The notes: generated from the sequence alone by a model not told the origin. A DNA stretch of 64,000 nucleotides from a virus (IMGVR_UViG_2541047850_000005:3554-67553), one strand, 5' to 3'; shown: positions 1,775 to 55,930, counted from the first letter of the stretch. A program made the numbers and translations.

Positions 1775-1978
1775 GATTAATTCCTTATCGTAAATAACAA
1801 ATTGTTTTCTTGTTGGCGTTAATTATCGTTGTACGAATAAGGCATCAAAGTGGAAAGTTGCGGTAGCCGGACGGGAACAGGTGGGTTTGTCGGTTGCCTG
1901 GAGGTAAGAGGTTGGTGTTTTTAGCCTGCGGGAAACAGGATGGTCATTTAAGGCCACCAGCAGTGGTGGCCTTAATAA

Positions 1979-2122
1979 TTATCGACCGATTACGCTAAGG
2001 ATCTTTTCCTCAACTGATTTGTTGTTGCGACTAAACTGCCTTGCGTATCTGATGACAGAAGAGGCGTTTTGCTTTCTGACTATCTCGGCTCTTTCCTTCA
2101 GGCGTTTCTTGAAATCGCCCAT
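1979..2122 (-). CDS. small basic protein (47 aa), below ORF-track cutoff
   Basis: MGDFKKRLKERAEIVRKQNASSVIRYARQFSRNNKSVEEKILSVIGR*. ATG lies 2 nt after the stop of 2125..2499. Hairpin 1951-1975 follows. Confidence 0.4.
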   Translation of the reverse strand: MGDFKKRLKERAEIVRKQNASSVIRYARQFSRNNKSVEEKILSVIGR

Positions 2123-2124
2123 AT

Positions 2125-2499
2125 TTACCACCAGGCGCAGAAGGTCAGTCTGTTATTGTGAAAGTCGTGGTTCTTAATCAGCTCTTCCACAAGTTTTTTC
2201 AACTCCCCCACGTCATGCCAGTACCCTTCATCGTACTCCTGACTGCCGAAGAAAAAACCTTCACAGGTAGGTAAGTACTCTTCGCAGTTACTTTCGTTCA
2301 TGTGCATCAAATGAGCTTTCAGAGCACAAATGTCATTCATCGTTAATTCTAAAAGCTCACAATTTTTGACTTCACCTACGTTGCGTTCCATCCACCCAAA
2401 GAGAGCATTGAACTTACGGAAGTAAGCAACCTTCTTTCTGGATGCATCGTTATTCAGATCGTTTTTTGGTTGCGTCTCAATGTAGATATCAAGTCCCAT
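2125..2499 (-). CDS. hypothetical protein (124 aa)
   Basis: ORF with SD AAGGAAA. Motif-1 copy at 2558-2574 sits 17 bp upstream of GAAAAT. Confidence 0.65.
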   Translation of the reverse strand: MGLDIYIETQPKNDLNNDASRKKVAYFRKFNALFGWMERNVGEVKNCELLELTMNDICALKAHLMHMNESNCEEYLPTCEGFFFGSQEYDEGYWHDVGELKKLVEELIKNHDFHNNRLTFCAWW

Positions 2500-2617
2500 G
2501 ATGGTTTCCTTATCAAGTTGCTTTCAGTGAAAGCATTTTCACAAATCAGATAAGGCAGAAAACAAATTGTTATCGGGCATAAGAAAATGGCGCGGTTTAC
2601 GCGCCATTCAAAGAGGA

Positions 2618-3025
2618 TTAAGCGAATACGCTTTCAGGGATTAAGGTGTCAGCAGGAATGCCGGAGGTAATGCGCAGACCATACTGACCAATCCAGGTAG
2701 TGTTAGTGTTCAGACTGGAAGCGAATACGGTGTTAACCATATTCATCATGGTTTCAAACACCTCTTTATTCACCTTACGGAAGTAACTTTCAATTTTCAA
2801 CAACAACGGGTCCGTTGCATCAAAAATGGACTGATATTGCGCCTCATATTCCCCGCCTGATGTATCTCCTTTACGCACAATAGTACTTGCCTGAACTTCA
2901 GTTCCAGTTTCGGTGTTGTACGTAACGACGGTGATTTTAGCTACATTCTTACCTTCGGCGCTTTCTGAAGCATAGTAGACATCAACTGTCAGGTTTTCTC
3001 GTTTAACGCTCATATCACTCTCCAT
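2618..3025 (-). CDS. hypothetical protein (135 aa)
   Basis: ORF preceded by TTGTAA-17-TAAAAT, which overlaps motif-2 site 3057-3076. Confidence 0.65.
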   Translation of the reverse strand: MESDMSVKRENLTVDVYYASESAEGKNVAKITVVTYNTETGTEVQASTIVRKGDTSGGEYEAQYQSIFDATDPLLLKIESYFRKVNKEVFETMMNMVNTVFASSLNTNTTWIGQYGLRITSGIPADTLIPESVFA

Positions 3026-3139
3026 AGTGTCTTGGTTATTTTTCTATTTTATAGACATAGGTATGTACTTACAATACAAAAAAAACCCGTAAGGATGGCG
3101 GGGCTGTCGTACTGTCGACTAATTACCACTTGCACATTA

Positions 3140-3451
3140 TCAGGCTATTGCCATCACTGATGCTCTCTGAATCTCTTGCTGGGCCACGCGGTTAACTTCC
3201 ATCAAAGCCAGTTCGAGCTGATGTTCCGGCCACATTCTTTGAAATGCCATCCAGCCTTTTCCACGCTGGCGACGAACATTCATTACATAACGAGTAAAGG
3301 TGTTTTTATCGAAAGACACCGCTGTTTCACGGAACAGACGAATAGAGGTTCCATTGGCAACGATGTCCAGCAAAGTTAATTGAGCAACCAGCGCAGGCTT
3401 CTCTTTTCTCTTCTGGTCTTTGTCCAGACCAAGAACCAATGATTTTTTCAT
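3140..3451 (-). CDS. hypothetical protein (103 aa)
   Basis: ATG 3451 has GGAG 7 nt upstream. The longer track start (3481) would lie inside motif-1 palindrome 3462-3477. Confidence 0.6.
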   Translation of the reverse strand: MKKSLVLGLDKDQKRKEKPALVAQLTLLDIVANGTSIRLFRETAVSFDKNTFTRYVMNVRRQRGKGWMAFQRMWPEHQLELALMEVNRVAQQEIQRASVMAIA

Positions 3452-3604
3452 CACAACTCCGTAAACAACTTGTTTTCTCAATGTCGTAAATAATACCAGT
3501 AAGAAAACGGCTACAAAGCATATTGATCAGGTGCATGAGCGATATGCAGGTTCTTCCCTGCGGCTATAGAGAAATTAAGCCAGCAATGCTGGCTTTGGTT
3601 GGGA

Positions 3605-3934
3605 TTACGCGAATACCTCAAGAAACTCCTGAACGTCCCAATGCTGGACGAGGTGAAGATAGACCTTAGAAATCACGTCATTTTCACTATCGCATGTGAA
3701 GTAGTACTTCTGGCTGCGGTTGTATGTGTCCACACAAAATTCGCTCATATCCATAAAGTCAGCATCTTCACCCATGTCGCAAATCATCAAAGCAGGTGCG
3801 TCATCACGAGTCATCAGCTCCAGCACCCATATTGAATTAATCAGAGTGGAAGACCAACCTTCCAGCTCATAAAACTGGTCAAACTCTTTTTGAGTCAATT
3901 TCTTAATTTGGTTGATGTCGATATTTGCAAACAT
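3605..3934 (-). CDS. hypothetical acidic protein (109 aa)
   Basis: ATG 3934 has AAGGA 8 nt upstream. Earlier in-frame ATGs fall in or after motif-1 palindrome 3946-3961. Confidence 0.6.
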   Translation of the reverse strand: MFANIDINQIKKLTQKEFDQFYELEGWSSTLINSIWVLELMTRDDAPALMICDMGEDADFMDMSEFCVDTYNRSQKYYFTCDSENDVISKVYLHLVQHWDVQEFLEVFA

Positions 3935-4073
3935 AAAGCAATCCTTAAACATGTTGTTTTCTGAATTACGTAAACAATACCAGTAAGAAAACGGCCACAA
4001 AGTATATCGTTACGGTGCTGCGCTGCCCCGGAGGTTAATAGCGACAAAAGCCACCGTGCTGGTGGCCTCACTC

Positions 4074-4292
4074 TTAATCTTGGTCGTCCGGGAACTCGCT
4101 GTGTACCGCGCCAACCAGCTCCCGCTTTTCATCTTCACTCAGCAGGTGCCAGATATCCTTCCCTTTGGGCGATTCCCCTTCTGCCGGGACGAACGACCAC
4201 AACTTGCGGTACAACTCCGGCCCCACTGCATCCAGACACTCAGCCAGGGAATCCACGCCCCACACCTCAACCGTCACAGGCATCTTAATCAT
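4074..4292 (-). CDS. hypothetical acidic protein (72 aa)
   Basis: ORF with SD GAGGA. Hairpin GCCACCGTGCTGGTGGC lies downstream. Confidence 0.55.
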   Translation of the reverse strand: MIKMPVTVEVWGVDSLAECLDAVGPELYRKLWSFVPAEGESPKGKDIWHLLSEDEKRELVGAVHSEFPDDQD

Positions 4293-4319
4293 CTCTTCAT
4301 CCTCACTTCGTTTCTATAA

Positions 4320-5760
4320 CGTCTAAATATGCTGTTTACTTGTTGGTGTTATTATCGCAATAAGACAAAGGCGAAAAAGGATTTTATGTCGGGAAAGCCA
4401 GGCTGGGCAGTGAATATCCGGGAACGACACGAGAGCCAGTATTTACGATATTCTGCTCTACGCACGCCGCGGGGCTGGTGGGCAGAATAATCCTCTCCCC
4501 GAAAACCTACTGAAATCGATTGTGACCCGCTGGCTGTCTGGCACAATTACGCTGTATCTGGCATTCAGAGGGAATCCAGCGGTAAGCAAGTCAGCCTGCA
4601 CGTGAGCGTCTCTCTTCTTCCCGCACATTACAGGTGGGTAGCTGCAACTCTCTCTCGCTATACCGGTACGCCGCCGTTCCTGAACCGGCATCGAGCCTTT
4701 TCCCGAAATCCACACAGGCAACTCGACCGTTTCCCTGAAAATCCCCAGCCGTTTCTGTAGCGTATGCAACCTTTTCTCTGTATGGACCGAAGGCTGACCG
4801 TAGGGGTGTTACGGGGGATGATGGTAAGATGTTGAATAAATACGAAAAAGGAGGCGACACCCCTCCTTCCCTCCCCACTTATACATACCTTGCTTCTTCG
4901 CTATACATGTTGTGTTTTCTTCGTGTTTTATCTGTCTCAACCTCTCTATAGGCGTTAATGCTTACTCCTTCCAGAACGTTCTATACGGCGACTATTTCTG
5001 TTGGTGAATTGGGTGTGTTGTTTTCTCTGTCGATGTATGTGGTTTCGTTCGTTTTGCGGTGGTTCTTCTATGGGGTGTTCTCGTCGTTTTGGTGATTGTT
5101 CTTCTCCGTGTATGGAGTAATGGCAGGTGGGCGATTCCTTTCGTTATTGTGTTTGAGTTGTTTGTCTGGAGTGTGTGAAGGGCTTTTGTAGTTATTCGTG
5201 TATTGGGTAATGGCGTTTCCCGTGATTGTTATGTTTCGTGTCTTTTGGGATTGAGAGAAACCTTGCGGTTACAGGCTTCGTTGGGGTTTCAGCGGTTCAG
5301 GTGTTTCTTCGCTGTTTGGGTAATGGCGTGTCGTGGGTATCGCGCGTATGAATGTTTTCGGATTGCCTGTGAAAGTTAGGTTGGTTATCCGGTAGCCTGG
5401 GAAGAAGAGGTGGGGTCTTTTCGGTAGCCTGCCATAAAGAGGTTGGTTGTTTTGGGTAATGGCATATGTGTTATTTGGTTGTTTTGTTATGCCTGAAAAT
5501 AAGTTGTTTATATGGTTGTGTAACGCAACGGGAGCGATTTTGAGCGTGTGTTTTTGTTGGTAGTGTGTTGAGTCGTCTGTGGTGAAAATTGGACGCTGTG
5601 GAGCTGTCTGCTGCGTAGGTTTACGGGTATAAGAAGTGATGTGTGAAAACGTCAATTTTTTAGACCAAATCGGGAGAAAGCGTTGATGTTTCGTTGATCT
5701 GTTATTTAGTTGTTTTCTTATTGGTATAAACAACTGTAACCTATTGATATTTAAGGATGT
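4320..5760. other. ORF-poor region; its right 0.9 kb is strongly G+T-rich on the + strand and carries dispersed short direct repeats
   Basis: Only low-complexity or overlapping ORFs. TGGGTAATGGC-type repeat at about 5113, 5203, 5316 and 5452. CGGTAGCCTG occurs twice at about 5390 and 5423. Confidence 0.5.
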
Positions 5761-5861
5761 GATTGCAGGCATGGAAGGGGAGTAGTGGCGATCAACGGAT
5801 TCTTATAGAAAAGAATCAAATTGTGACCGCCATTATCAACGGTTTGAATATGTTTGCAGAT

Positions 5862-6161
5862 TTACCAGTTCCAGCACTCAAGCCCTTCAACGACCGGCGC
5901 ACCACAATCAAAATGTACAGAGTCAAAGCCTACATCAAGTACTTTCTGAATGTTAGCAATCGCGCCTTCGGATATACCATATCGACGCAAGTCGTCTTTC
6001 CAGACATCATCCTGTAACCCGGCGTGGACAATACAACCGCCATCAATTTGTGAAACCCAATCCAGCTCATTGCTTGCGATCATGAATCGGCGAGCATCTT
6101 CCTCTGATGTATGAGATGAACTGATCAATGCCACCTGGTAGGCTTGGGTAATGTTCAACAT
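5862..6161 (-). CDS. hypothetical protein (99 aa)
   Basis: ATG 6161 has GGAG 8 nt upstream (track start 6170 is a GTG). Two motif-1 palindromes upstream (6174, 6224). Confidence 0.6.
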   Translation of the reverse strand: MLNITQAYQVALISSSHTSEEDARRFMIASNELDWVSQIDGGCIVHAGLQDDVWKDDLRRYGISEGAIANIQKVLDVGFDSVHFDCGAPVVEGLECWNW

Positions 6162-6274
6162 TTCAACCACTCCAAAACAAGTTGTTTTCTTATGTGGCTT
6201 ATTATCTCTAACAACAAAAGGCAGAAAACAAATTGTTTTAGGTACTGTGTAAATCAGAAGGGATTGTGTCTATA

Positions 6275-6303
6275 TGAAAATGCCCGGCGTGTTGCCGGGC
6301 ATT
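6275..6303 (-). terminator. metG terminator
   Basis: Hairpin AATGCCCGGC..GCCGGGCATT followed by TTTTC on the minus strand. Confidence 0.75.
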
Positions 6304-6322
6304 GCGAAGAGAGGTTGCTTAA

Positions 6323-8356
6323 TTACTTAACCTGGTGACCAGGTTTAGCACCAGCATCCGGGCTTAACAGGAAGATATCTTTCCCACCAGGACCAGCAGC
6401 CATCACCATGCCTTCTGAGATACCGAAACGCATTTTACGCGGAGCCAGGTTAGCCACCATAATGGTGTGACGACCAATCAGTGCCTGTGGGTCTGGATAA
6501 GCAGAACGAATGCCGGAGAAGACATTACGCTTTTCCCCACCGAGATCCAGTGTCAGACGCAGCAGTTTGTCAGAGCCTTCAACAAACTCCGCGTTTTCAA
6601 TCAGCGCCACACGCAGGTCAACTTTGGCGAAGTCGTCAAAGGTGATGGTTTCCTGAATCGGGTCGTCAGCCAGTGGGCCAGTTACCGGTGCGGCTGTGGC
6701 TTTCACTTCTTCTTTGGATGCTTCCACCAGTGCTTCCACCTGTTTCATATCGATGCGGTTATACAGCGCCTTGAACGGATTCACTTTGTGGCCCAGCAGC
6801 GGTTGCTGGATACCATCCCAGGTCAGTTCTGTATTGAGGAATGCTTCTGCGCGCTCGGTCAGTTTCGGCAGTACCGGTTTCAGGTAAGTCATCAGCACGC
6901 GGAACAGGTTAATGCCCATAGAGCAAATCGCCTGCAGATCGGCATCGCGACCTTCCTGCTTCGCCACCACCCACGGAGCCTGTTCATCGACATAGCGGTT
7001 AGCCAGGTCAGCCAGTGCCATGATTTCACGGATAGCTTTACCAAATTCGCGGCTTTCCCATGCTTCGCCAATCACTTCAGCGGCATCAGTAAAGGTTTTG
7101 TACAGTTGCGGGTCAGCCAGTTCGCTTGCCAGCACGCCGTCAAAACGCTTGTTGATAAAGCCTGCATTACGGGAGGCCAGGTTAACCACTTTGTTCACGA
7201 TATCGGCATTCACTCGCTGAACGAAATCTTCCAGGTTGAGATCGATATCATCAATGCGCGAAGAGAGTTTCGCAGTGTAGTAGTAACGCAGGCTGTCGGC
7301 GTCAAAATGATTCAGCCAGGTGCTGGCTTTAATGAACGTGCCGCGAGACTTGGACATCTTCGCACCGTTCACCGTCACATAGCCATGAACAAACAGGTTG
7401 GTCGGCTTGCGGAAGTTGCTGCCTTCCAGCATGGCAGGCCAGAACAGGCTGTGGAAGTAAACGATATCTTTACCGATGAAGTGGTACAGCTCGGCGGTGG
7501 AGTCTTTCTTCCAGTATTCATCGAAGCTGGAGGTGTCGCCGCGTTTGTCGCACAGATTCTTGAAGGAACCCATGTAGCCAATCGGCGCGTCCAGCCAGAC
7601 GTAGAAATATTTGCCCGGCGCGTTCGGAATTTCAAAACCGAAATAAGGGGCGTCGCGGGAGATATCCCACTGTTGCAGGCCAGATTCAAACCACTCCTGC
7701 ATTTTATTTGCCACCTGCTCCTGCAACGCACCGCTGCGGGTCCATGCCTGCAGCATTTCGCTGAAAGAAGGCAGATCAAAGAAGAAGTGTTCGGAATCAC
7801 GCATTACCGGCGTAGCACCAGAAACTACCGATTTCGGCTCGATCAGTTCAGTCGGGCTGTAAGTCGCGCCGCAGACTTCACAGTTATCGCCGTATTGATC
7901 TGGCGCTTTACATTTAGGGCAGGTGCCTTTTACAAAACGGTCCGGCAGGAACATGCCTTTTTCCGGGTCGTATAACTGAGAGATGGTGCGGTTTTTAATA
8001 AAACCGTTCTCTTTCAGGCGAGTATAAATAAGCTCGGACAACTGACGGTTCTCTTCGCTGTGCGTCGAGTGATAGTTGTCATAGCTGATGTTAAAGCCTG
8101 CAAAATCAGTCTGGTGTTCCTGACTCATTTCGCCAATCATCTGTTCCGGTGTGATACCAAGCTGCTGTGCTTTCAGCATGATCGGTGTGCCGTGGGCATC
8201 GTCGGCACAGATGAAATTAACCTCGTGGCCGCGCATTCGCTGGTAACGAACCCAGACATCAGCCTGGATGTGCTCCAGCATATGGCCGAGGTGGATTGAG
8301 CCGTTAGCGTACGGCAGCGCGCACGTCACCAGAATTTTCTTCGCGACTTGGGTCAT
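6323..8356 (-). CDS. metG: methionyl-tRNA synthetase
   Basis: 677 aa from [30 protein letters not shown] motif present, plus a C-terminal tRNA-binding domain. Near-identical to E. coli MetG as recalled. Confidence 0.97.
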
Positions 8357-8513
8357 AGTAGGCATTACTTCTTTGTAGTGAAAAGGGGCTTGATAGTAAC
8401 AAAATGGCCTTATGTCTGCCATGTGATAACAGCATTTCTCATAAATGATTAAATGCCGTAGCTGGAGTACACTACAAGGCGACAATTGCGCAAATTAAAA
8501 TAAAGGAGACGGG

Positions 8514-9614
8514 ATGAGCGAGTCCAAATCGCCGGATGCCCTGAGAGCAATGGTAGCCGGTACGCTGGCTAATTTTCAGCACCCAACCCTGAAACACAAC
8601 CTGACTACGCTTAAAGCGTTACACCATGTTGCGTTGATGGATGACACACTGCATGTCGAACTAATCATGCCTTTCGTGTGGAATAAGCCTTTTGAAGACC
8701 TGAAAGAGCAATGTAGTGGTGATCTGCTCCGTATCACTGGCGCAAAGGCTATCGACTGGAAGCTGTCGTACAACATTGCCACGCTTAAGCGCGTCAAAAA
8801 CCAACCAGGCATTAATGGCGTTAAGAACATTATCGCCGTCAGCTCAGGCAAGGGCGGCGTTGGTAAATCCTCCACGGCGGTAAACCTGGCACTGGCGTTG
8901 GCTGCTGAAGGTGCGAAAGTTGGTATTTTGGATGCCGATATCTACGGGCCATCAATTCCAACCATGCTTGGCGCGGAAAACCAACGTCCAACCTCACCGG
9001 ACGGTACTCACATGGCACCGATTATGTCTCATGGACTGGCAACCAATTCAATTGGTTATCTGGTAACTGACGACAATGCGATGGTGTGGCGTGGTCCGAT
9101 GGCGAGCAAGGCGTTAATGCAGATGTTGCAGGAAACTCTATGGCCTGATCTGGACTATCTCGTTCTCGATATGCCGCCGGGTACTGGTGATATTCAGCTG
9201 ACGCTGGCGCAGAACATTCCTGTAACTGGTGCTGTTGTGGTAACTACGCCGCAAGATATCGCGCTGATCGATGCGAAGAAAGGCATTGTGATGTTCGAAA
9301 AAGTCGAAGTGCCGGTACTGGGTATCGTCGAAAACATGAGTGTGCATATTTGCAGTAACTGCGGTCATCACGAGCCAATTTTTGGCACCGGTGGCGCACA
9401 GAAACTGGCCGAGAAATACAACACGCAGTTGTTAGGCCAAATGCCACTTCATATCTCTCTTCGTGAAGATCTGGATAACGGAACACCAACCGTTATTAGT
9501 CGTCCAGATAGCGAATTTACGGCTATTTATCGTGACCTTGCAGATCGCGTTGCTGCCCAAATGTATTGGCAAGGTGAAGTAATACCTGGCGAAATCGCAT
9601 TCCGCGCAGTGTGA
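8514..9614 (+). CDS. apbC: Fe-S cluster carrier ATPase ApbC/Mrp
   Basis: P-loop SSGKGGVGKSS and CSNCGHH motif. Divergent from metG as in E. coli. SD AAGGAG. Confidence 0.95.
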   Translation: MSESKSPDALRAMVAGTLANFQHPTLKHNLTTLKALHHVALMDDTLHVELIMPFVWNKPFEDLKEQCSGDLLRITGAKAIDWKLSYNIATLKRVKNQPGINGVKNIIAVSSGKGGVGKSSTAVNLALALAAEGAKVGILDADIYGPSIPTMLGAENQRPTSPDGTHMAPIMSHGLATNSIGYLVTDDNAMVWRGPMASKALMQMLQETLWPDLDYLVLDMPPGTGDIQLTLAQNIPVTGAVVVTTPQDIALIDAKKGIVMFEKVEVPVLGIVENMSVHICSNCGHHEPIFGTGGAQKLAEKYNTQLLGQMPLHISLREDLDNGTPTVISRPDSEFTAIYRDLADRVAAQMYWQGEVIPGEIAFRAV

Positions 9615-9615
9615 T

Positions 9616-9640
9616 AAAAAGGTGGTGCAATGCACCACCT
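9616..9640. terminator. bidirectional terminator shared by apbC and the humD-like gene
   Basis: AAAAA-GGTGGTGCAATGCACCACC hairpin between two convergent stop codons. Confidence 0.7.
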
Positions 9641-9651
9641 AAACAGTTCTC

Positions 9652-10041
9652 CTACATCACAGGACAATCATCAAACTCGCCACTTCTTGCGTCGTTGATA
9701 ATGTGAGTGATCACACCAAACACGGCATTGCTGCCCGTGCATCCATCATCATCCTTTGGCAATGCTTCCTTCTTACCAGTTCTTAAATCCTCCAGATGCT
9801 GACGTGGATACTTCCGGTATCTTTTTACGCGATATTCCCCATCCAGAGCACATACAAGAAGAGATCCATCAACAGGAGTGAGTGAGGAATCGACCACCAG
9901 CAATGCACCCTGCAATATTCCCTCACGATGATGGCTATCAGCTGCCCTCAAGAAGTAGGTCGCTGAAGGATGTCTAATTATCTGCTGATCAAGAGAAATA
10001 CGGCTCTCAGCATAATCCGCCGCAGGAGAGGGGTACCCCAT
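9652..10041 (-). CDS. humD: UmuD'-like protein encoded in pre-processed form (P1 HumD-like)
   Basis: MGYPSPAADYAE.. aligns with UmuD from the Cys24/Gly25 cleavage site onward. The ADSH Ser and VKRYRK Lys are retained. Confidence 0.85.
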   Translation of the reverse strand: MGYPSPAADYAESRISLDQQIIRHPSATYFLRAADSHHREGILQGALLVVDSSLTPVDGSLLVCALDGEYRVKRYRKYPRQHLEDLRTGKKEALPKDDDGCTGSNAVFGVITHIINDARSGEFDDCPVM

Positions 10042-10059
10042 AGCGTTTTACCTCAAAAA

Positions 10060-10079
10060 TACTGTTTATCTGTACAGTA
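10060..10079. promoter_or_regulatory. LexA (SOS) box upstream of the humD-like gene
   Basis: TACTGTTTATCTGTACAGTA equals CTGT-N8-ACAG, 19 bp upstream of the ATG. Confidence 0.8.
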
Positions 10080-10198
10080 TACATTAAAGAAGCACCTTTG
10101 GTGCATTAGAGAAATGCAAAACGATAATAGAGGCTAAATCGAGGTAGAAAACACATTGTTTAAGGCCACTAATTGTGGCCTTAATGGAGAGGGGATGC

Positions 10199-10723
10199 TT
10201 ATTGGCTATGGCTAAAAATCAAATTAGACACTTCATGTGGTTGTAGCTCGTCAAGATCCGGTGCCACAAAACCTTTTCCGAAAGACTTCACAAGTGATTC
10301 ACCAGCCGCATCATTGTCACCTATTACACGAAAGTCATACGGCAGCATTGCCAGTTGACGACGTAATCCTGCTGAGAAAGTCGAACCTAACAGCGCCCAC
10401 GAATTTCCGCCCGCGTTGTGCACTGCTGCACTTTTAAAAATCGACTCAGTTATCCATATCGGTCCATCTTTTAAAGGAAGATAGGTTCCCCATAGTAGCT
10501 GTCTGCCGTGCGCTCGTGTGAAATACCGGGCCATCTTCGGATTGCTGTGCTGCTTAGGAGCGCCTGGTCTGTATGTCTGATACCCGGCCAACATCCCATC
10601 AAACCTGTATAGAGGGAATGTAACAACTCCTTCGCTTTCATCGATCCACTGTCTATATGGGTGTATATCATGGCGGTAGTTACGAGTCAGCAAATGAGCT
10701 TCCAGCTTTCCAAATTTGGTCAT
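10199..10723 (-). CDS. Toprim-domain protein (primase-core-like)
   Basis: IWITESIFKSAAV (Toprim Glu) and VIGDNDAAG (DxD). ATG 10723 lies 13 nt after the upstream stop and has a GAGG SD. Confidence 0.55.
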   Translation of the reverse strand: MTKFGKLEAHLLTRNYRHDIHPYRQWIDESEGVVTFPLYRFDGMLAGYQTYRPGAPKQHSNPKMARYFTRAHGRQLLWGTYLPLKDGPIWITESIFKSAAVHNAGGNSWALLGSTFSAGLRRQLAMLPYDFRVIGDNDAAGESLVKSFGKGFVAPDLDELQPHEVSNLIFSHSQ

Positions 10724-10736
10724 AACTTCGCATCCC

Positions 10737-11591
10737 TCATAACACTTCCCATTTATCACCATATTTCTCCATAGCTCTTAGCCAGTAAACATGGCCACTA
10801 GGCATAGTGATGTGAGGCTCGCCAAACTCTTCTCCATGCACATCAAAGATGTCCCCAACAGAGAATTGGGGGATTTCTGTGCCGTTTTCACCTATATGCG
10901 TAATTCGTATACGTTTCGGTTGAGATTCGCCCCCTTTGAGCGAGTTGTTCACGGCTCTTGCAATCTTCTCCCGCAATTGCTGCGTTCCGTGATACGAAAC
11001 CGCAATATCCCGCAACTCGTTCACCAGTTCTCGAATTTGGTGATCTTTAAGCTCATTATTTGGGTGATGGGCAACAACTCTGGTTAATTCACCCTTGTCT
11101 TTTGCTCTTACGTATGCAGCTCTTGTGCATTCGACCCATGTATTACCGCCTACATTAACTTCGTAGATTAGGCTGGACTTATCTGTTAATTCGGCACAAA
11201 TACGGGCCGTGGTCTGACAACTAGAGCATTCGCAGTGATCACGGAAACCGTGATCTACTGGCTTCGGTTTCACATCATCAACTTTTTCTACCCTATTGGA
11301 ATTTAAATACTTCGAAGCCTTGCTATGCCAATCGCTGGTTTTAGGATCTTGTCCATCCATCAAACGCCAGGCTTCAGCGATTAACTCATAACTAGTGACT
11401 GTAGCTTCCTGCGCATCACCAATAAGTCGTGTAATCTCTCTTTCAAGCCGACCGCCTAATTCCGTTTTAGTGCAATGTTCTGACCAATCGCCAGCCTCAA
11501 GAAGCGCGAGAATGTTTAAAATATCGTCCAATAGAACGGTAGTATTTTCGACTTCCTTCTGAAGCTCTCCGGCTGCTGATTTATGCGTCAT
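10737..11591 (-). CDS. hypothetical protein (284 aa)
   Basis: Long ORF with Cys cluster HCECSSC, start overlapping the upstream stop. Confidence 0.65.
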   Translation of the reverse strand: MTHKSAAGELQKEVENTTVLLDDILNILALLEAGDWSEHCTKTELGGRLEREITRLIGDAQEATVTSYELIAEAWRLMDGQDPKTSDWHSKASKYLNSNRVEKVDDVKPKPVDHGFRDHCECSSCQTTARICAELTDKSSLIYEVNVGGNTWVECTRAAYVRAKDKGELTRVVAHHPNNELKDHQIRELVNELRDIAVSYHGTQQLREKIARAVNNSLKGGESQPKRIRITHIGENGTEIPQFSVGDIFDVHGEEFGEPHITMPSGHVYWLRAMEKYGDKWEVL

Positions 11592-11857
11592 TCGTCATCC
11601 TCATCCGACTCATCCTCATCACAGGTTGAGAGTAGTGGGTTAGTCATTCGTCCTACTTGAGTGGCGTAGCCACGCCGACAGAGATTGCGCAGCACACTGT
11701 ATATTTCGAACATCTCGGTTCGTTCCTCACCAACATCAAGCTCAGATGCTATAGCGTGGCATTCAGTCGCGAGAGCCGATATTTTCTGAAATAACTCTGC
11801 TTTATTCACTCTTCGACTCCTGCGGAGGTTCTGGTAGCGGCATCCAGTGTGTGACAT
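11588..11857 (-). CDS. hypothetical protein with acidic tail
   Basis: ORF ends CDEDESDEDDE. A GTG at 11809 with GGAG 7 nt upstream is a likely alternative start. Confidence 0.5.
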   Translation of the reverse strand: MSHTGCRYQNLRRSRRVNKAELFQKISALATECHAIASELDVGEERTEMFEIYSVLRNLCRRGYATQVGRMTNPLLSTCDEDESDEDDE

Positions 11858-12410
11858 TGCTAATCAGACCATATTCATTCGTTTGAGGATGGTTGCCGTT
11901 ATCGTCTCCGTATTTAAGACTCTCCATAAAGCCATAATGCCTATCACCATTAACGCTCACAAAGCCGTAATAAGCAGGTATAACGCCGATCTCACACGTA
12001 ACCAGCAAAGGAAAACTAGTTCTCCAATTTAGCTCGCCGATTACAGGCATCTGCTCACTACAGCTTATCCAACCATCAGGAGTAACCGGATAGTTGCGCA
12101 TTGCGACCTTAAATGCCTCATAGAAGCAACCTTTCAGATTATTGAACTGACGCCCGTTCAGAGGGCCATGTTCTGTCAACATGTTGTGTAATTTCCATGC
12201 CGCGTCGTTAACTTCGTTGGATGATCTGGGAGGCAACTTGCAAGTTTGGCTTACAGGTTCTGCACTATCAGCTTCGCGCCGCTTCTGTAGCTCTGCTGCC
12301 ATCGCTCTCACGACTTCAACTGGTGCCCTTGCAGCAAACTCTATGTTGGTGATCAGCTCATTAAGATATTGCTCGCCTGGATACTGTTTCTTATCGGTTA
12401 TAGTAGTCAT
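11802..12410 (-). CDS. DUF551-like phage protein (202 aa)
   Basis: C-terminal ..NVTHWMPLPEPPQ signature. ATG 12410 preceded by GGAGAGTGAT. Confidence 0.65.
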   Translation of the reverse strand: MTTITDKKQYPGEQYLNELITNIEFAARAPVEVVRAMAAELQKRREADSAEPVSQTCKLPPRSSNEVNDAAWKLHNMLTEHGPLNGRQFNNLKGCFYEAFKVAMRNYPVTPDGWISCSEQMPVIGELNWRTSFPLLVTCEIGVIPAYYGFVSVNGDRHYGFMESLKYGDDNGNHPQTNEYGLISNVTHWMPLPEPPQESKSE

Positions 12411-15157: not shown

Positions 15158-15295
15158 GTGTTTTTCTCTTCTTTGCTGTTACATAAGCACTACCAAGTGC
15201 TGGTTTATTTTCACAAATAAGAAAATGTAGAAAACAATTTATTTAAGGCCACAACTTATGGCCTTTATTTATTCATGCCGAAGGATTTGTAGCGT

Positions 15296-33151: not shown

Positions 33152-33185
33152 ATGTTAATAGATAAGCACCTACCTATCAATGAAA

Positions 33186-43285: not shown

Positions 43286-43347
43286 GTGTTTTCCTATGTG
43301 GTTGTTATGCGAAAATAATAAGTAAGTGCTTATGTATTTTCAAGAGA

Positions 43348-43377: not shown

Positions 43378-45717
43378 TTACTCTTCTACTGACTCGGTGG
43401 GGTTGTCTTTTGCTCTTCGGTCGTCGATTGCCTGCAAAGCCGCAATGATTTCAGCCAGTGGCTTCTCCCGATACATCTCGACGATCTGCGATTTGGTGTA
43501 TTTCTTGTCACCAATTTCAACTCGCCCGCTGGCGTTCTTTGGCAGGTATCCTTCTTCCAGCATGTACTCGACGAGCGATTCGATAACGTCGAGGCCACGA
43601 GTAGGATCGAAGTAGAATTTCCAGGTGCATTTGCCATACGGTGGTGCAACTTTGTTTTTGATGCATTCTGCGCCTACGTCCTGGCCGATCTTCTCTTTAC
43701 CATCCTTCATCACCGATGCACCAAGACGGATACGTACAGAAGCGTAGAACTTCGGTGAATCTCCACCTGGCGACGTAGTAGGGTCGCCAAACATTACACC
43801 GATTTTTGTGCGAACCTGATTCAAGAAGATGATGCAGGCGTTGTATTTGCGTGCCCACAAAGCCAGAGTAGGGAAGTTCGCACTTGTCGCACGAGCCAGT
43901 GCCGTATTGTCGTTCATGTTTAGCTGATCTTTGTCTTTGGCAGTGCCTTCAGCCATCTTTTCGAACTTCTCGGCTTTGGAGTTCGGAACCATAGACGCAA
44001 GTGAGTCAGCCACGATACAGATAGGTGCTGATTCAGGAATAAGCTCTTCATCACGTACCAATTTAAGAATTGTGCCGATCAACTCTACAGAGTCTTCGAA
44101 GGTATCAGGCTGCTTGTATACCCACTGACCGTCATCCTCATCTGCGTTCAGGCCATTGGCTACAGCCAGGCCAACGTCAAAACTGTTTTCATGATCGAGG
44201 AATACCGCCAGACCATCTTGTTTTTGAGCGGAGATCATCGCTGCTGTTGCAAGGAATGTGTTGTGGCTGATAATCCCGTTAGACCAGAAAGAGTGTGTTT
44301 CCGGCATCGCTACGTCGAACGTTGGTGCTTCACCTTCCTCAATAGCCACGACTTCGTCGTAGAATAAGTTAGAGCCAATTACCGCTGCCAGTTGTGCAAA
44401 CAGATGCTCGTTAAAACGATTCTTTCTGCCAATGAAGGAGACATAGATTTCTCGCAGTTTGTCTATTCCGACACGATCGCCGCGGCCAATAACGTGGTCT
44501 ACCAGAGCGTAGTCTTCACGGGTGGTCTTGGTGAGCGACTCGTAGAGTGATTTCACTAAGCCGCTGATGTGCGGAACATAGCCTGAGTAAGTGCGGTCAA
44601 AACCAATGTCCCGTTTGGTTGCCACTGATAAACGTGCCGGAGATTCGAAACCAATCGTTGACAGAAAAAGGTCGTAATTAGAGCCACTGAATGACAGCCG
44701 GTAATATGTATTTTCATAACCCGCGACGTGTTTTTCAGAGATAGTTGACGTAATCCCCAGATTCAGGAGCATGAGGCGAATTTGCTGTAGCAGCAGCCCA
44801 CTCGCGCTCACAACCTCAATGCAGCGACCACCATTGACGTGGCATTCCAGCTCAAAGTAGCCGCGAAGGAATGCAATTTGAGCCTCGCTATTGGCGCGAC
44901 GCACACTCAACGGAACCTGCTTGCCAGCAGCTTTCTCATACTCCAGACCATATTCTTTAAAAAGCAGCGAACGCACCTCTTTGCTAAACAGCACATGGTC
45001 TTCCGAGCCGTTATGTTTTCTCGTAACTGGCATCTTGTCTGATACCAGCGAAATGAGGCGGTAGTACTCATCCTTGATGAATGGATCTGTGTTAGAAAAA
45101 TGCACAGAATTTTCAGAGGCCACGTATCCGTCAGCAATTAAATAGCCCATCAGTTTTGCGATATTGGCATCCAAGTGCTGATCGCCGAATTGATGTGTGC
45201 CAACCATTGAAGGAATCGTGTCGCCTACACTGATTTTTTCAGCATACCGCCAGACGATATTGCCTAAGTCGTCAACCACACGAATTGGGTGACGGAACGT
45301 AGCCTCGATGTAACCCCCTGATGCCAGCTTAATGCGCTTGAATTTGCGACGGTTGTTCCATGTCAGGTGTGAGGTTTTCTCTATCACGCCATTTTCATTG
45401 ATGAGTCCAACGTTATGCTCTACATCGCGAGTAGTGCATGTTGCTTTGTGCCCCTCAATCTCAAACAGTTCTTTCACTGTTACCATTCCACGCTCCGTCA
45501 GCAGCATGGTGTCTGCGGTAACACATTTCCCCGCACTTGGAGGACCGAATACTTCGACGATACGACCACATGGGAAACCGCCATCGTAACGACCGGAAAT
45601 CGCTTTGTTTAACGGAGGAAAGCCTGTGTCAATCCAATGAGTTACTTTCTGAATTTCGTCGTTGCTACCGATTTTCTTTTTCAGAGCAAGTGCCAGTGCG
45701 GATTTTCCTTTTGCCAT
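43378..45717 (-). CDS. recA: RecA recombinase interrupted by an intein
   Basis: The exteins read GRIVEVFGPPSAGK|TFLA.., QPDTFE and FLNQVRTKIGVMFGDPTTSPGG..KFYASVR, which is RecA-like. Confidence 0.9.
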   Translation of the reverse strand: MAKGKSALALALKKKIGSNDEIQKVTHWIDTGFPPLNKAISGRYDGGFPCGRIVEVFGPPSAGKCVTADTMLLTERGMVTVKELFEIEGHKATCTTRDVEHNVGLINENGVIEKTSHLTWNNRRKFKRIKLASGGYIEATFRHPIRVVDDLGNIVWRYAEKISVGDTIPSMVGTHQFGDQHLDANIAKLMGYLIADGYVASENSVHFSNTDPFIKDEYYRLISLVSDKMPVTRKHNGSEDHVLFSKEVRSLLFKEYGLEYEKAAGKQVPLSVRRANSEAQIAFLRGYFELECHVNGGRCIEVVSASGLLLQQIRLMLLNLGITSTISEKHVAGYENTYYRLSFSGSNYDLFLSTIGFESPARLSVATKRDIGFDRTYSGYVPHISGLVKSLYESLTKTTREDYALVDHVIGRGDRVGIDKLREIYVSFIGRKNRFNEHLFAQLAAVIGSNLFYDEVVAIEEGEAPTFDVAMPETHSFWSNGIISHNTFLATAAMISAQKQDGLAVFLDHENSFDVGLAVANGLNADEDDGQWVYKQPDTFEDSVELIGTILKLVRDEELIPESAPICIVADSLASMVPNSKAEKFEKMAEGTAKDKDQLNMNDNTALARATSANFPTLALWARKYNACIIFLNQVRTKIGVMFGDPTTSPGGDSPKFYASVRIRLGASVMKDGKEKIGQDVGAECIKNKVAPPYGKCTWKFYFDPTRGLDVIESLVEYMLEEGYLPKNASGRVEIGDKKYTKSQIVEMYREKPLAEIIAALQAIDDRRAKDNPTESVEE
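44260..45525 (-). other. 422-aa intein with a LAGLIDADG homing-endonuclease domain inside the RecA Walker A
   Basis: Starts with Cys (GK|CVTADT) and ends ..GIISHN|T. LMGYLIADGY and FLRGYFELECH blocks. Confidence 0.85.
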
Positions 45718-45719
45718 GA

Positions 45720-45992
45720 TCAGGCTCCTTTTGTTTCGTTGATTCGTTTTAAAGCGGCGGATTCGTCGAATACAATCGCATCGTGGTTAAGGTGTCTGGA
45801 TACACGAGCGAGGATTTTTACGACCTGCTCGCTGACTAATCCAAACTCGCGATCTGTCGCTTTCATTCCGGCAGCGTCTAGAATTGACGGCAGTGCGATG
45901 ACAGCGTACTCACCGTGATAAAAGACAATCTCTTTTGCCAGTTGGGTAGGGGTGGTTGTAGCGCCATTAATAATCGATTTAAGCATTAGCAA
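45720..45992 (-). CDS. hypothetical protein (90 aa)
   Basis: ORF coupled to both neighbours. Confidence 0.5.
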   Translation of the reverse strand: MLMLKSIINGATTTPTQLAKEIVFYHGEYAVIALPSILDAAGMKATDREFGLVSEQVVKILARVSRHLNHDAIVFDESAALKRINETKGA

Positions 45993-48019: not shown

Positions 48020-48136
48020 GTGTTTCTCCTTGTTGTGATTTGGCCGATGGCGCTATGCGCGTTGGGCTTTCGTTCATTCGTGGCTCTTTCGAGCTGTTTA
48101 ATGATAGATCAGTGCTTACTTATTATCTATCAAAAA

Positions 48137-52396: not shown

Positions 52397-53628
52397 CCAA
52401 ATATTTTTTGAACAACTTCACGAGCCGCTTGTGCAGAAGCTGAAGGGAGTTTGTTAATGAAAGAACGCTCAATACCTGTCACAAAATCGCCTCGCATCAT
52501 TCCAATCTTGGCCGACAACAAAAGCTCACGAGGCCCAATCGGTTGGCTGATATTGTGTTCTTCGTATCCATCGCGAACGATACCGGCAAACTTAACCATC
52601 TTTTCAGCGTATTCATCCACGATGCCGGCATTTATCAACATGTTGATCTCTGCCTCTTTGCTCATGTATTTCACATTCGAAACGATGCCAAAACGCGAAA
52701 AGTTAGCGGCGTTCTGGATGTTTGTACCCTGGTACAAGCCGGTTTCATCACCAGATCCGTTCGTGTTGCCAGTGCCAATGAAAGCAAACCGTTCATGCGG
52801 AGTAATGCGACGCCATTCTGGAGTCGCCTCTTTGATGACCAACGCTTCACCTTCCAGCACTGGCTGATACACGCCAAGAATCTGTGGAAACGCAAAGTCG
52901 TATTCATCCGCGAGGTAAACCCAGCCATGCTTCATTGCGAGCGCAAGCAAACCAGGCTCGAAATACGTAGAGCCATCACGCGCCAGAATTTGTCCCGTAA
53001 CATGAGCCTCTTCCATTGATGCTGTATGTTGGGCACGGATTAACGGACGATTGAGCAAAGCACATAGTTGTGTAGGCAATGAAGATTTGCCTGTTCCTGC
53101 ATGACCCCACAAATAGCCTGGTATGCCAAGTTCAAGCATCATGAAAATGTCTTTGATCAGTTCGAAGTCGCCATATACGTATCCCTTCTTCACTTCTGGA
53201 ACGAACTCTGGAAACGGCGTATTGACGTTGACGCTAACCATGAGCGGCGTCCCACGTTTTGTTCCGAGTTCTTTCACCGTTACATTTAGCATTTCGTGAG
53301 CTGCGACCAGATCTGTCTTGTACTCAACTGTGCCTGTATAGCCTGGGCTATTGGTCACGCCAGATGATTTGGCCATTTCGCTTTTTTGCTCGGCACGTTT
53401 AGCTTGAATTGCATCAAGTGCCTTTTTCGATAGCGTTGGCTCATCTGGAAACTGCGTTGTGTACATTTTCAGTACGGTGTCAGGATCGGCATCTTTTACT
53501 GACTCAGGAATGCCCTCGCAATTACCATTGGCTACATGGGACTTAAAATAGTGAAATGATTTTCCGCACCACTTGCAAACAAGGTAATCAGAAGGATTTT
53601 TTTCATTTTGCAGTGCAGTAGTAGTCAT
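52393..53628 (-). CDS. CobS-like MoxR-family AAA+ ATPase with an N-terminal zinc ribbon
   Basis: WGHAGTGKSS, VYLADEYD and FIGTGNTNGSGDETGLYQGT are CobS-like. CKWCGK..C at the N-terminus. Confidence 0.85.
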   Translation of the reverse strand: MTTTALQNEKNPSDYLVCKWCGKSFHYFKSHVANGNCEGIPESVKDADPDTVLKMYTTQFPDEPTLSKKALDAIQAKRAEQKSEMAKSSGVTNSPGYTGTVEYKTDLVAAHEMLNVTVKELGTKRGTPLMVSVNVNTPFPEFVPEVKKGYVYGDFELIKDIFMMLELGIPGYLWGHAGTGKSSLPTQLCALLNRPLIRAQHTASMEEAHVTGQILARDGSTYFEPGLLALAMKHGWVYLADEYDFAFPQILGVYQPVLEGEALVIKEATPEWRRITPHERFAFIGTGNTNGSGDETGLYQGTNIQNAANFSRFGIVSNVKYMSKEAEINMLINAGIVDEYAEKMVKFAGIVRDGYEEHNISQPIGPRELLLSAKIGMMRGDFVTGIERSFINKLPSASAQAAREVVQKIFG

Positions 53629-53723
53629 GCGTTTTTCCTTTGTTTTCTAATGAGCTTTCAACTTCTTATATAAATATACCATCAAATATCGTAAGTGATT
53701 ACTTATCATTAAGGCTATTCTAA

Positions 53724-55832
53724 TCACTTCAAAATGATACGAGATAGTTCAGTAACTACAGATGAACCAAGACTATCAACGCTCGTTACCAGGGCATGGT
53801 TTGCGTAAAATCTCTCCGGTGCGTCAGTCATGATGCCAATTGCCATCAAATCAATGTCAGTCTGCGTTTCAATTTGCTTCGCAACCGAACGCAAATGAGC
53901 GTCAAAACCTCTCCCAACAGCCAACGGCTCGCCATCATTCAGAACAAGCATGATCTTCCTGTCCTCCATGCGACCGGAAAATAACGATGCAAGGCTGGCT
54001 ATGCTTTCACCATCCACGTTATTAAGAAGTGGGAATGTGTAGCCTACGCACCCCATACGTGAGCGAACTTCGCGAGAATTTACCTTTTCATTCCAATTTT
54101 TGATGATAGGTAGCATTAAAGATTCAAAGCGAGAGAACTCATACTTGACAGCCTTAAGTTCTCCTGCCGCCATATGACTACCAAATGTAGTGAAGCCGGT
54201 GATAATGTTGGGAACATTTATTCGATCAAGGGCATCGGCGATGGTATATGCACTTGCAAGAGCCAATTGTATCGTTATACCACTCATTGAACCTGATAAA
54301 TCAATCACTTGTTGAACACAGGCGTTAACGGCTTTAGATTCTTCTTTTTTACGAAACACGCGATCATCATTCATTGCTAATCTGTAGATACTAGAACCAT
54401 GAATGCGCCCCCGACGCTGGCCCGGTATAAACTGAACTCTGTTTCTGCTTGCTATTGCTCGCTCCAGGTCTTTTGCCAGCGTCGACGAAACACCTGACGA
54501 AAGATGCTTTTCAATATATTTGTCGAAGAGCTGGTTGCCTTCAGGAACGATGCGATAGCGGCTGATTGGATATCCTCCTAAATCAATATCGGAGAATGTT
54601 TTAATAAGCCGTTTGATATGGGCTTCTGCCTGATCAATCGAGCCGATGAAGTCGTATGAGCGATTGTATGGCCTGTATTCACTTTTCGAGCTTTCTGTTA
54701 ACTCGCTTTTAATCGTTTCGGATAGAGCATCTTCTGTCATGCCTCCGACTTCATCTTCTATGCTATCCAGCTCCTCTAAAGCCTCTTCCAGACTCATTTT
54801 TGACGTAGTTGGAATATCTGAAGAGCCGTCTTCTGTCGTTTTTCTTTTTTCGTGGTCAGCGGTTAATGATTCTGACGCCGCGTTATCAGAAGCATCAGAA
54901 TCTGATACCTCTTTATCATTTTCTGTATCATCGAATATTGTTTCTGATGATTCAGAATTATCTGAATCATCACTGTCGTTATTATCATGTTTGTGCTTAC
55001 TATGTGATTCTGATTTGATAGATTTGTGATTATCTAACAATGAGGGTGTCTCATGATCTTCGTTGTCTTCATTGTTTTCTCCAGAGGCATCCGTCTGGTC
55101 AGCGTCTGAAGGATCGGAAGTTTTTCCCGGAGCTGACTCCTTACCTTTGCTTTCACTTTCAGTGTCTTTGAGGATCTTAGCTATGGTCGCAGCCACCTTT
55201 ACACAATCCTCGGTGCAAGACATGTTACGCACGGCCACATCGATACCATGTTCTTTTAATAATGAAATTGGTTTCTCAATGACAGGCCAATATTCATCCA
55301 TGAAATCTACGAACGGTGCTTGGCCATCCCAGGCTCTTACAACCGGACAGAGAAAGAAGTTTAGAAAAAGCGCGCGCTGATCTTTGCCACAATAAGCAAT
55401 AGCCTCTGAAGCCTTTGGTTTAAAGACTTTTTCGATTATAAGGCGCTGAGTTGCCATCAGATTACGTCTTGTTCCGTTAAAGACCTGACCCATTTTTCGC
55501 TCGATGAACACGTCTTCTAAGGCATTCCATAGCGACCAGGAAGGAACGCGTCCTTTTTCTTTCATTTTGTTGGACACACGAATATCGGTAAACAAAATGT
55601 GAGCAACCTCATGATCGAGAAATCCGCGCACAGCATTCATCAATGCCGGTGTTGCGTTATCCGGGATTGATGGGATGTTTACGAGAATTGGCTCTCCATC
55701 ATCATTATAGCGTACATAAGCGTCGTCCCCTCGTTCTGCAACAGGGATGTTTTTACCTGAAAGGAGAGCGACTACTCGTTTTACACTGTCACGGAAGTCC
55801 TGAACCTCTTTGATGGAACGTTTTTTAGACAT
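53724..55832 (-). CDS. CobT-like vWA-domain protein with an N-terminal HExxH motif and an acidic linker
   Basis: C-terminal VIDLSGSMSG MIDAS. HEVAH at aa 74-78. D/S/E-rich segment at about aa 225-345. Confidence 0.8.
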   Translation of the reverse strand: MSKKRSIKEVQDFRDSVKRVVALLSGKNIPVAERGDDAYVRYNDDGEPILVNIPSIPDNATPALMNAVRGFLDHEVAHILFTDIRVSNKMKEKGRVPSWSLWNALEDVFIERKMGQVFNGTRRNLMATQRLIIEKVFKPKASEAIAYCGKDQRALFLNFFLCPVVRAWDGQAPFVDFMDEYWPVIEKPISLLKEHGIDVAVRNMSCTEDCVKVAATIAKILKDTESESKGKESAPGKTSDPSDADQTDASGENNEDNEDHETPSLLDNHKSIKSESHSKHKHDNNDSDDSDNSESSETIFDDTENDKEVSDSDASDNAASESLTADHEKRKTTEDGSSDIPTTSKMSLEEALEELDSIEDEVGGMTEDALSETIKSELTESSKSEYRPYNRSYDFIGSIDQAEAHIKRLIKTFSDIDLGGYPISRYRIVPEGNQLFDKYIEKHLSSGVSSTLAKDLERAIASRNRVQFIPGQRRGRIHGSSIYRLAMNDDRVFRKKEESKAVNACVQQVIDLSGSMSGITIQLALASAYTIADALDRINVPNIITGFTTFGSHMAAGELKAVKYEFSRFESLMLPIIKNWNEKVNSREVRSRMGCVGYTFPLLNNVDGESIASLASLFSGRMEDRKIMLVLNDGEPLAVGRGFDAHLRSVAKQIETQTDIDLMAIGIMTDAPERFYANHALVTSVDSLGSSVVTELSRIILK

Positions 55833-55930
55833 GGCTAATCCTTTGTTATGAAAACAAATTATTTACTAGTATGTTTAATGTAGCACTGCGCGAACAGGGA
55901 ACTAAGCCATTCGCGCAGGTAGCAGAGGGG

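Follow-up and report, generated by a model that had tools for sequence, protein, structure and literature searches.

We found that a 15-base palindrome, AAAACAAnTTGTTTT (two 7-base arms around a single base; hereafter motif 1), recurs at fixed positions around putative promoters in a 64,000-nucleotide stretch of viral DNA (IMGVR_UViG_2541047850_000005:3554-67553; hereafter the window, meaning the whole stretch analysed), which by its sequence belongs to an SSU5/pHCM2-type phage-plasmid. We propose that motif 1 is a dispersed operator for a repressor, and that the likeliest binder is the small (119 amino acids, aa) partner of the partition ATPase ParA; we would give this account as a whole a probability of about 0.6. 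We are fairly confident that the palindrome is a DNA operator of some protein encoded by the element, and hold at slightly under even odds that this protein is the ParA partner, a candidate chosen on sequence features.

The first 12 kb of the window (1-12000) are 99.4% identical to Escherichia phage PhiR41_1 (107,998 base pairs (bp), circular); with phage Cyrano (pLF82) and further SSU5-like phage-plasmids the identity is 95-97%. The window comprises a leftward-transcribed region of early and DNA-metabolism genes (nrdAB, thyX, folA, polIII-alpha and a recA-like gene), with metG and apbC/mrp on the opposite strand. Tests across the replicon were made on the complete PhiR41_1 record, which has 134 annotated coding sequences and 11.2% intergenic DNA, and also on Cyrano.

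Distribution, promoter context and conservation of motif 1

Scanning the window with the pattern AAAACAANTTGTTTT, at most 2 mismatches being allowed, yielded 14 matches against 0.91 +/- 0.88 expected (maximum 4) from 100 dinucleotide-preserving shuffles; a variant with a 2-bp spacer gave no match in the window. When all palindromes with 6-bp arms were ranked in an unbiased scan of the window, AAACAA-1-TTGTTT came top with 6 perfect copies. The PhiR41_1 replicon carries 18 copies of motif 1, of which 17 are intergenic (0.29 +/- 0.58 expected from composition-matched resampling of intergenic DNA; binomial P = 1e-15 for the intergenic bias), and the sole 'coding' copy, equivalent to window position 5496, sits in a doubtful open reading frame (ORF). 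All 13 copies listed in the original prediction were recovered, with 0-2 mismatches to AAAACAANTTGTTTT, and we found one more at 5496-5510; the second perfect TTGTTTAAACAA that it placed at 30741-30752 and the degenerate copies that it placed near 4331 and 5705 (here 4324-4338 and 5702-5716) are also present. It called every copy that it had found intergenic; a comparison of coding with intergenic DNA across the replicon bears out this restriction except for the copy in the doubtful ORF. The copies and their settings in the window are as follows.

1794-1808, minus strand: motif 1, downstream type; -10 GATAAT at 1822-1827, then 13 nucleotides (nt), the palindrome, 19 nt and the ATG of the gene at 1292-1774
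2559-2573, minus strand: motif 1, upstream type; after a hairpin and T-run, with the -10 TGt-GAAAAT at 2535-2540, 18 nt downstream
3462-3476, minus strand: motif 1, downstream type; TGg-TATTAT at 3490-3495, ATG 10 nt past the palindrome
3946-3960, minus strand: motif 1, downstream type; TGg-TATTGT at 3974-3979, ATG 11 nt past the palindrome
4324-4338, minus strand: degenerate copy TAAACAGCATATTTA, behind an intact TGcGATAATAACACCAACAAG cassette
5496-5510, minus strand: motif 1 with 2 mismatches, in an A/C-rich, probably non-coding stretch; extra direct half-sites ATAACAAAACAAC follow; kept in relatives
5702-5716, minus strand: degenerate copy in which the AAGAAAACAA half alone is retained
6174-6188, minus strand: perfect motif 1, downstream operator (putative) of a double cassette; centre at about +14, ATG at 6161
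6201-6206, minus strand: -10 GATAAT shared by the double cassette, between its two motif-1 copies
6225-6239, minus strand: perfect motif 1, upstream operator (putative) of the double cassette; centre at about -38, 51 bp centre-to-centre from the copy at 6174
10148-10162, minus strand: motif 1, upstream type; directly after the hairpin GGCCAC-N5-GTGGCC, -10 TATTAT at 10124-10129, 5' of a umuD-like gene
15231-15245, minus strand: motif 1, upstream type; after the hairpin GGCCAT..GTGGCC, TGt-GAAAAT at 15207-15212
18142-18156, minus strand: decayed copy TAAACAAATCATTTC; relatives have an intact copy here, 5' of a 561-aa gene
19774-19788, minus strand: motif 1, downstream type; -10 CACAAT at 19801-19806
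20503-20517, minus strand: perfect motif 1, 23 nt 5' of the ATG of a TciA-like gene; standard offset without a -10
30721-30735, minus strand: motif 1 between nrdA and nrdB
30741-30752, no strand: perfect TTGTTTAAACAA, the motif-1 half-sites in outward (opposite) order, 5 bp from the copy at 30721
42174-42188, minus strand: motif 1 after a terminator, 15 nt 5' of the ATG of a DUF7238 gene
55851-55865, minus strand: motif 1 between the cro-like gene and a 702-aa gene

Beyond the window, PhiR41_1 has copies 5' of parA and of the replicative helicase gene, a weaker copy 5' of the primase gene, and two copies 25 bp apart 5' of the small terminase gene (terS) at the head of the late block. In the leader of this late (terminase) operon (PhiR41_1 45640-45755) a -10-like TAATTA is followed by the two copies, which have opposite polarity, and a hairpin (AGAGCGC-N6-GCGCTCT) with GTGTGTGTTTT lies directly 5' of terS; this layout suggests antitermination control of the late genes.

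Eleven of the 14 window copies fit one of the two fixed promoter contexts that the original prediction had described. On the coding strand, the downstream type reads ttG-n-GATAAT-AAcaCCAAcAAG-AAAACAAnTTGTTTA-(a)GGAG..ATG, and the upstream type (hairpin)cCT-TAAACAAnTTGTTTT-CTaCCTTTTnTTATtTGnGAtAAT. In 318 distinct contexts collected from relatives, -10-like hexamers are concentrated at two offsets: they begin at -18 in 35% and at +33 in 25% of the contexts, the median for other offsets being 0.6%, and a TG lies 5' of the hexamer in 70-78% of those cases. The promoters are therefore of the extended -10 type (TGnGATAAT). In the relatives the distance of the palindrome from an extended -10 is about 12 bp on the downstream side or 18 bp on the upstream side, often with a copy on each side, and the centre of the palindrome falls either at about +14, just past the start site, or at about -38, the -35 position. 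GTTTTC, which the original prediction placed 17 bp upstream of the -10 hexamer in the upstream context, is not credible as a -35 element; the upstream copy takes up the -35 position and does not provide a -35. Hairpins do precede upstream copies, as had been noted, but those of the GGCCAC type lack a proper T-run on the coding strand, so that the name terminator suits them only in part.

Pairs of an upstream and a downstream copy, present in the window (6225/6174), Cyrano and six further relatives, are exactly 51 bp apart in every case; because 51 bp is about five helical turns, both copies lie on one face of the DNA. The full site extends beyond 15 bp and is asymmetric (AG-AAAACAAnTTGTTTA-agg); both orientations are found, the AG side pointing toward the -10 in all cases, and paired copies are therefore mirror images about the promoter. 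This mirrored polarity, the existence of copies upstream of the -10 and the palindromy itself favour a site in double-stranded DNA. As RNA, the palindrome reaches -0.7 kcal/mol at best, with non-significant z-scores, and a search of the whole window against Rfam gave 0 matches at gathering thresholds.

In related phage-plasmids, in which conservation of both site and position had been expected, orthologous sites are intact despite diverged flanks and proteins. The copy at 55851 is perfect in relatives in which the protein of the 702-aa gene behind it is 57-62% identical and the flanks differ; the copy at parA is invariant across lineages with 80-84% nucleotide identity in parA; and the parA and helicase copies are retained in a Klebsiella lineage with unrelated flanks. 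The 20-kb loci of relatives whose anchor proteins are 69-92% identical contain 7-15 copies in the same two contexts. A scan of viral contigs found, among the matches listed, extended copies in promoter context only in SSU5-like contigs, the other listed matches resembling chance matches in coding DNA. A 39%-identical relative (L044/L045) has neither a motif-1 copy nor a recurrent palindrome in 22 kb, and is uninformative on co-variation.

Expression was assessed from RNA sequencing (RNA-seq) of a lysogen of Cyrano, as given in a supplementary table (PMC9928086). Cyrano is 95%-related, its motif-1 copies were mapped separately, and the prophage background in this dataset is 9.8. The 15 genes directly behind motif-1 copies in Cyrano have a median of about 7.5; expressed exceptions are parA (49.8), the helicase gene (21) and CYRAN_111 (25.5). 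This silence agrees with repression in the plasmid state, for which it is weak evidence. A separate observation concerns the umuD-like gene at window 9652-10162, which has an upstream-type copy: Cyrano is without that copy, and the gene is strongly on in its lysogen (148 vs 9.8).

Candidate binder and competing explanations

The original prediction held that no binding protein could be assigned from the sequence. A candidate can nonetheless be proposed, the ParA partner, which has the palindrome at its own promoter; the assignment stays at the level of a candidate. ParA has 222 aa and matches a PHROG ParA-like family, and its orthologues match the Pfam family CbiA/ParA/MipZ; it resembles the small type Ib ATPases that lack an N-terminal DNA-binding domain. 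Motif 1 overlaps the parA promoter, and is the only conserved palindrome 5' of parA in all lineages examined. In type Ib systems, a small ParA is regulated by a ribbon-helix-helix partner with a flexible N-terminal tail, which binds repeats upstream of the operon (PMC5016525). In the ParA partner, residues 1-47 form a basic N-terminal region, unstructured in the AlphaFold model, and are followed by KSRTMSLEDE-helix-turn-TRSDVIRAAI-helix, a signature that may represent a ParG/omega-like ribbon-helix-helix core. Pfam and PHROGs searches of 10 proteins adjacent to or downstream of the sites, and of regulator neighbours, gave no DNA-binding domain other than a weak XRE helix-turn-helix (HTH) in the CI-like protein described below.

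The ParA partner is expressed in the Cyrano lysogen (89 vs background 9.8), and it is the most conserved of the 36 and of the 45 orthologues in two diverged contigs (95% identical), whereas the CI-like and cro-like proteins of these contigs are 66-67% and 49-57% identical, respectively; a FljA-like protein is 65% identical in a third contig. The identity of the ParA partner is high despite 9-14% nucleotide divergence of its gene. Homologues down to 48% identity retain the palindrome and share two unchanged segments, IKSRTMSxEDE at the putative strand and FTRSDVIRAAI, where the second helix begins. Where the strand of a homologue is altered to SRSLS, in Raoultella, the parA site is half-decayed and the helicase gene has no site; a 32%-identical homologue (KRLTFSL, from an organism of 60% GC) goes with a different AT-rich palindrome, TTCATAAATGAA, and a direct TTCATAA 5' of parA.

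Several observations weigh against the ParA partner or against repression at these sites. The AlphaFold model of the partner is of low confidence (predicted local distance difference test 62.6), and the protein matched nothing in Pfam or the PDB, including in an alignment-profile search of solved structures and Pfam. Co-variation of partner and site is seen in two diverged homologues only. Type Ib centromeres are usually arrays, whereas a single palindrome lies 5' of parA; an array of half-sites of the classical centromere kind was sought and none was found, the maximum being 4 half-sites per 300 bp. A generic scan for sigma-70 -35/-10 promoters and terminators called no promoter at motif-1 sites, and gave fewer promoter-like matches than shuffles. 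Motif-1 promoters escape such a scan because their -35 boxes are weak, and the evidence for promoters therefore comes from the positional analysis and the conservation of TGnGATAAT. The RNA-seq agreement is weak evidence, since a lysogen keeps most lytic genes off in any case; moreover, parA is expressed while single-site targets such as CYRAN_58 are silent, so occupancy alone cannot explain expression levels.

A second palindrome family and a CI-like repressor bear on the choice of binder. The features concerned are these.

56391-56777, plus strand: CI-like gene of the XRE family, divergent from the cro-like gene and beside the integrase gene
55931-56143, minus strand: cro-like gene, forming a divergent pair with the CI-like gene
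Motif 2, found by the GTAAGTNCTTAC scan: 3057-3076, 16423-16442, 21395-21414, 23609-23628, 33158-33177, 37857-37876, 41364-41383, 43318-43337, 48104-48123, 53691-53705 and 56345-56364

Motif 2, whose ideal form is ATAGGTAAGT followed by ACTTACCTAT, was scanned with the pattern GTAAGTNCTTAC and up to 1 mismatch. It has 11 matches in the window (0.65 expected) and 18 in the replicon (0.25 expected), 16 of the 18 being intergenic, and was found also in a Raoultella relative. The two motifs are interleaved and never occur at one promoter: nrdA, for instance, carries motif 2, whereas motif 1 is the one found at nrdB. The -10 of the CI-like gene is followed directly by GGTAAGTGCTTACC, a sequence conserved in four lineages. 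Judged from sequence, the CI-like repressor most likely owns motif 2, because GGTAAGTGCTTACC at its own promoter belongs to the motif-2 family. The CI-like/cro-like pair (55931-56777) is a probable lysis-lysogeny switch. Repeats of the type ATATGATAT, 21 bp apart, stand in front of the cro-like gene at 56194-56228; in RNA-seq of Cyrano in macrophages the cro-like gene is up about 90-fold, and genes behind motif 1 remain low.

Motif 1 could instead be the operator set of this CI-like repressor, in an immunity network of the P1 C1 style. Of the annotated HTH repressors, the CI-like protein alone is clearly on in the related lysogen (96 vs 9.8), its relatives in elements retaining motif 1 have an unchanged recognition helix (NNLSLIKSGK), and a palindrome of 15-19 bp fits an HTH dimer. 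We nevertheless consider this assignment unlikely: the control region between the CI-like and cro-like genes (56143-56391) has no motif 1 and contains GGTAAGTGCTTACC, of the motif-2 family, instead; the protein is only 66-67% identical in relatives in which motif 1 is unchanged; and the 39%-identical relative, with a near-identical recognition helix, has no motif 1 in 22 kb. It is improbable, too, that motif 1 is simply part of a promoter cassette spread by duplication or recombination (compare the promoter-stem-loop repeats of T4 type), or a site for a middle-promoter activator, with no role in repression. Conservation of the cassette does extend past the palindrome (TGnGATAATAACaCCAAcAAG, CTaCCTTTTnTTAT), many copies adjoin small variable genes, and the -38 position is compatible with a class II activator; yet the palindrome is the best-conserved part of the cassette and is kept where the flanks have been replaced, a copy at about +14 cannot activate, and an activator should be needless where a promoter has a good -35 box besides its extended -10, yet these promoters are silent in the lysogen.

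The invariance of motif 1 across elements from Escherichia, Salmonella, Klebsiella and their relatives would also be expected if a conserved enterobacterial transcription factor of the host bound it, coupling the element's promoters to host physiology. We know of no enterobacterial factor with this consensus, a full-text literature search for the half-sites found no host factor, and in the scan, which covered viral contigs, the exact extended copies in promoter context occur, among the matches listed, only in SSU5-like contigs; such a factor seems quite improbable. Least probable, to the point of being hardly tenable, is that motif 1 acts in RNA as a translational operator for a protein of the FljA family, although downstream-type copies fall within the 5' untranslated region (5' UTR), directly ahead of the Shine-Dalgarno sequence. 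A FljA-family gene lies 0.8 kb to the left of the window (L001 17606-18124, equivalent to PhiR41_1 37192-37710); its 172-aa product is a full-length member of PF03614 (E = 1e-68), and a FljA-like protein is encoded by all 12 of the 12 matching SSU5-like phage records. Proteins of the FljA type reportedly block the translation of fliC mRNA (PMC2652032), and in 9 window copies the palindrome ends 10-29 nt 5' of the ATG. However, upstream-type copies precede the -10 and have the opposite polarity, which would be intolerable for an RNA site, and the palindrome forms no stable hairpin; the 5' UTR of Escherichia coli fliC has no similar sequence; and the FljA-like protein is 65-75% identical among relatives with invariant sites and is weakly expressed in the lysogen (18). 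A FljA-type translational operator was accordingly rejected on four grounds: the two orientations, the sites upstream of the -10, the absence of the sequence from the fliC leader and the lack of RNA structure. The FljA-family protein may silence host flagellin in lysogens.

Other features of the element

Identical GC-rich hairpins, AGCGCCCA-N3-TGGGCGCT, lie at window 186-204 and 682-700, 3' of small plus-strand genes and with a T-run at the second copy; they are probably the terminators of a rightward gene group. A common translation-initiation sequence, AAGGAAAAACACATG, is found 5' of many genes in the element and its relatives (for example at 19757-19773, 20480-20502 and 30693-30720). The A/C-rich stretch at about 4900-5830 on the minus strand contains four degenerate copies of GCCATTACCCAAnACACG (5102, 5192, 5305 and 5448), one motif-1 copy and additional direct half-sites. 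It is annotated as a coding sequence in relatives; translation is implausible, with conservation of just 41-46%, and its level in the Cyrano lysogen is 57 against the background of 9.8 (CYRAN_102). This stretch may be a non-coding RNA.

Proposed mechanism, related systems and significance

The original prediction read the palindrome as an operator for a dimeric regulator at promoter positions. Restriction to intergenic DNA, fixed offsets, conservation, absence of RNA structure and silence in the lysogen agree with that reading, of which the -35 detail and the analogy with P1 have to be revised. We infer that a repressor encoded by the element would bind motif 1 at about 18 host-type sigma-70 extended -10 promoters, those of early and accessory genes, nrdB, the replicative helicase gene, parA and the head of the late (terminase) operon. 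Occupancy at about +14, at about -38 or at both would block the binding or escape of RNA polymerase and keep these promoters shut in the plasmid-prophage state, and at the double cassette two dimers on one face of the DNA would clamp the core promoter. The likeliest repressor would be the ParA partner, with one dimer on each heptad (AAAACAA / TTGTTTT). It would autoregulate parA-parG while acting as a global repressor, and its dispersed sites could double as partition sites; the CI-like protein would be a second repressor, acting on the interleaved motif-2 promoters and on its own gene. In its most specific form, which we advance tentatively and think somewhat more likely to be wrong than right, a type Ib partition protein would double as one of two genome-wide repressors, the approximately 18 single-palindrome sites would form a dispersed centromere, and the CI-like protein would run the second set. 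If true, a single protein would tie together plasmid segregation, the sensing of copy state and the lytic programme.

With a ParA partner as candidate and the palindrome at its own promoter, omega of pSM19035 and KorB of RK2 are closer analogies than C1 of P1. The arrangement proposed here matches that of pSM19035, in which a small ParA works with a small partner, omega, made up of a flexible N-terminal tail and a beta-alpha-alpha core. The omega sites are built of 7-bp units, direct or inverted, lie across several distinct promoters and have a role in regulation as well as in partition (PMC5016525). The partner described here has no sequence similarity to omega; each site has one inverted pair, whereas omega binds arrays of 7-10 heptads; the sites number about 18, against 3 (x2) for omega; and the targets include phage lytic and replication genes, with binding and any centromere role putative. 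In the IncP plasmids RK2/RP4, KorB and KorA act through two dispersed families of palindromic operators at many promoters, and one of the two regulators is also the centromere-binding partition protein, with promoter-proximal sites. KorB, however, is an HTH protein of the ParB family with the operator TTTAGCSGCTAAA, whereas the present candidate is type Ib and ribbon-helix-helix-like, the site is unrelated and the element is a temperate phage.

In the phage-plasmid P1, lytic functions are kept off by C1 at more than 15 operators scattered over the genome. A C1 monomer binds each operator, an asymmetric 17-mer (ATTGCTCTAATAAATTT); in the present element, by contrast, a palindrome flanks the promoter and the CI-like protein appears to use a different palindrome. 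No C1 homologue is annotated in PhiR41_1 or Cyrano, although no search was aimed at one. The site, as a 7-1-7 palindrome of unrelated sequence, rules out an operator of the P1 C1 class; the multi-operator layout that suggested a P1-like immunity network is real, but this analogy fits motif 2, at the CI-like promoter, better than motif 1. The stoperators of mycobacteriophage L5, bound by gp71, are tens of short repressor sites in short intergenic gaps across a temperate genome. Each stoperator is an asymmetric 13-mer with a single orientation to the direction of transcription, and it blocks elongation, whereas the present sites are palindromes locked to the -10.

As is proposed for the present element, ParG and parH-OF of TP228 combine a type Ib ATPase with a ribbon-helix-helix partner that autoregulates from upstream repeats and whose N-terminal tail modulates the ATPase (PMC5016525). 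ParG uses arrays of 4-bp boxes at one locus, in contrast to the single 15-bp palindrome found here at parA and at many other places. SopB of N15 is likewise a partition protein of a phage-plasmid, with several separate palindromic sites (IR1-IR4) instead of one array, and these sites are scattered among phage genes; it differs in being a type Ia, large HTH ParB with 4 sites, and the sequences are unrelated. The motif-1 network thus resembles the multi-operator networks of omega/pSM19035, KorA-KorB/RK2 and P1 C1, and by sequence is a member of none of them. A search of the literature for either palindrome, or for regulation of the SSU5 type, found no description.

Phage-plasmids of the SSU5/pHCM2 type occur commonly in Escherichia, Salmonella and Klebsiella, and resistance genes are found on some of them. 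Their quiescence as plasmids is essentially unstudied. The two palindrome families map about 36 promoters that are predicted to be regulated. The highly conserved 66-bp double cassette is putatively a compact repressible promoter, and the protein that binds motif 1 would be an obvious handle for curing or inducing SSU5-like elements. If that protein is the ParA partner, partition would be linked to lytic control, in a phage counterpart of the omega and KorB networks of plasmids.

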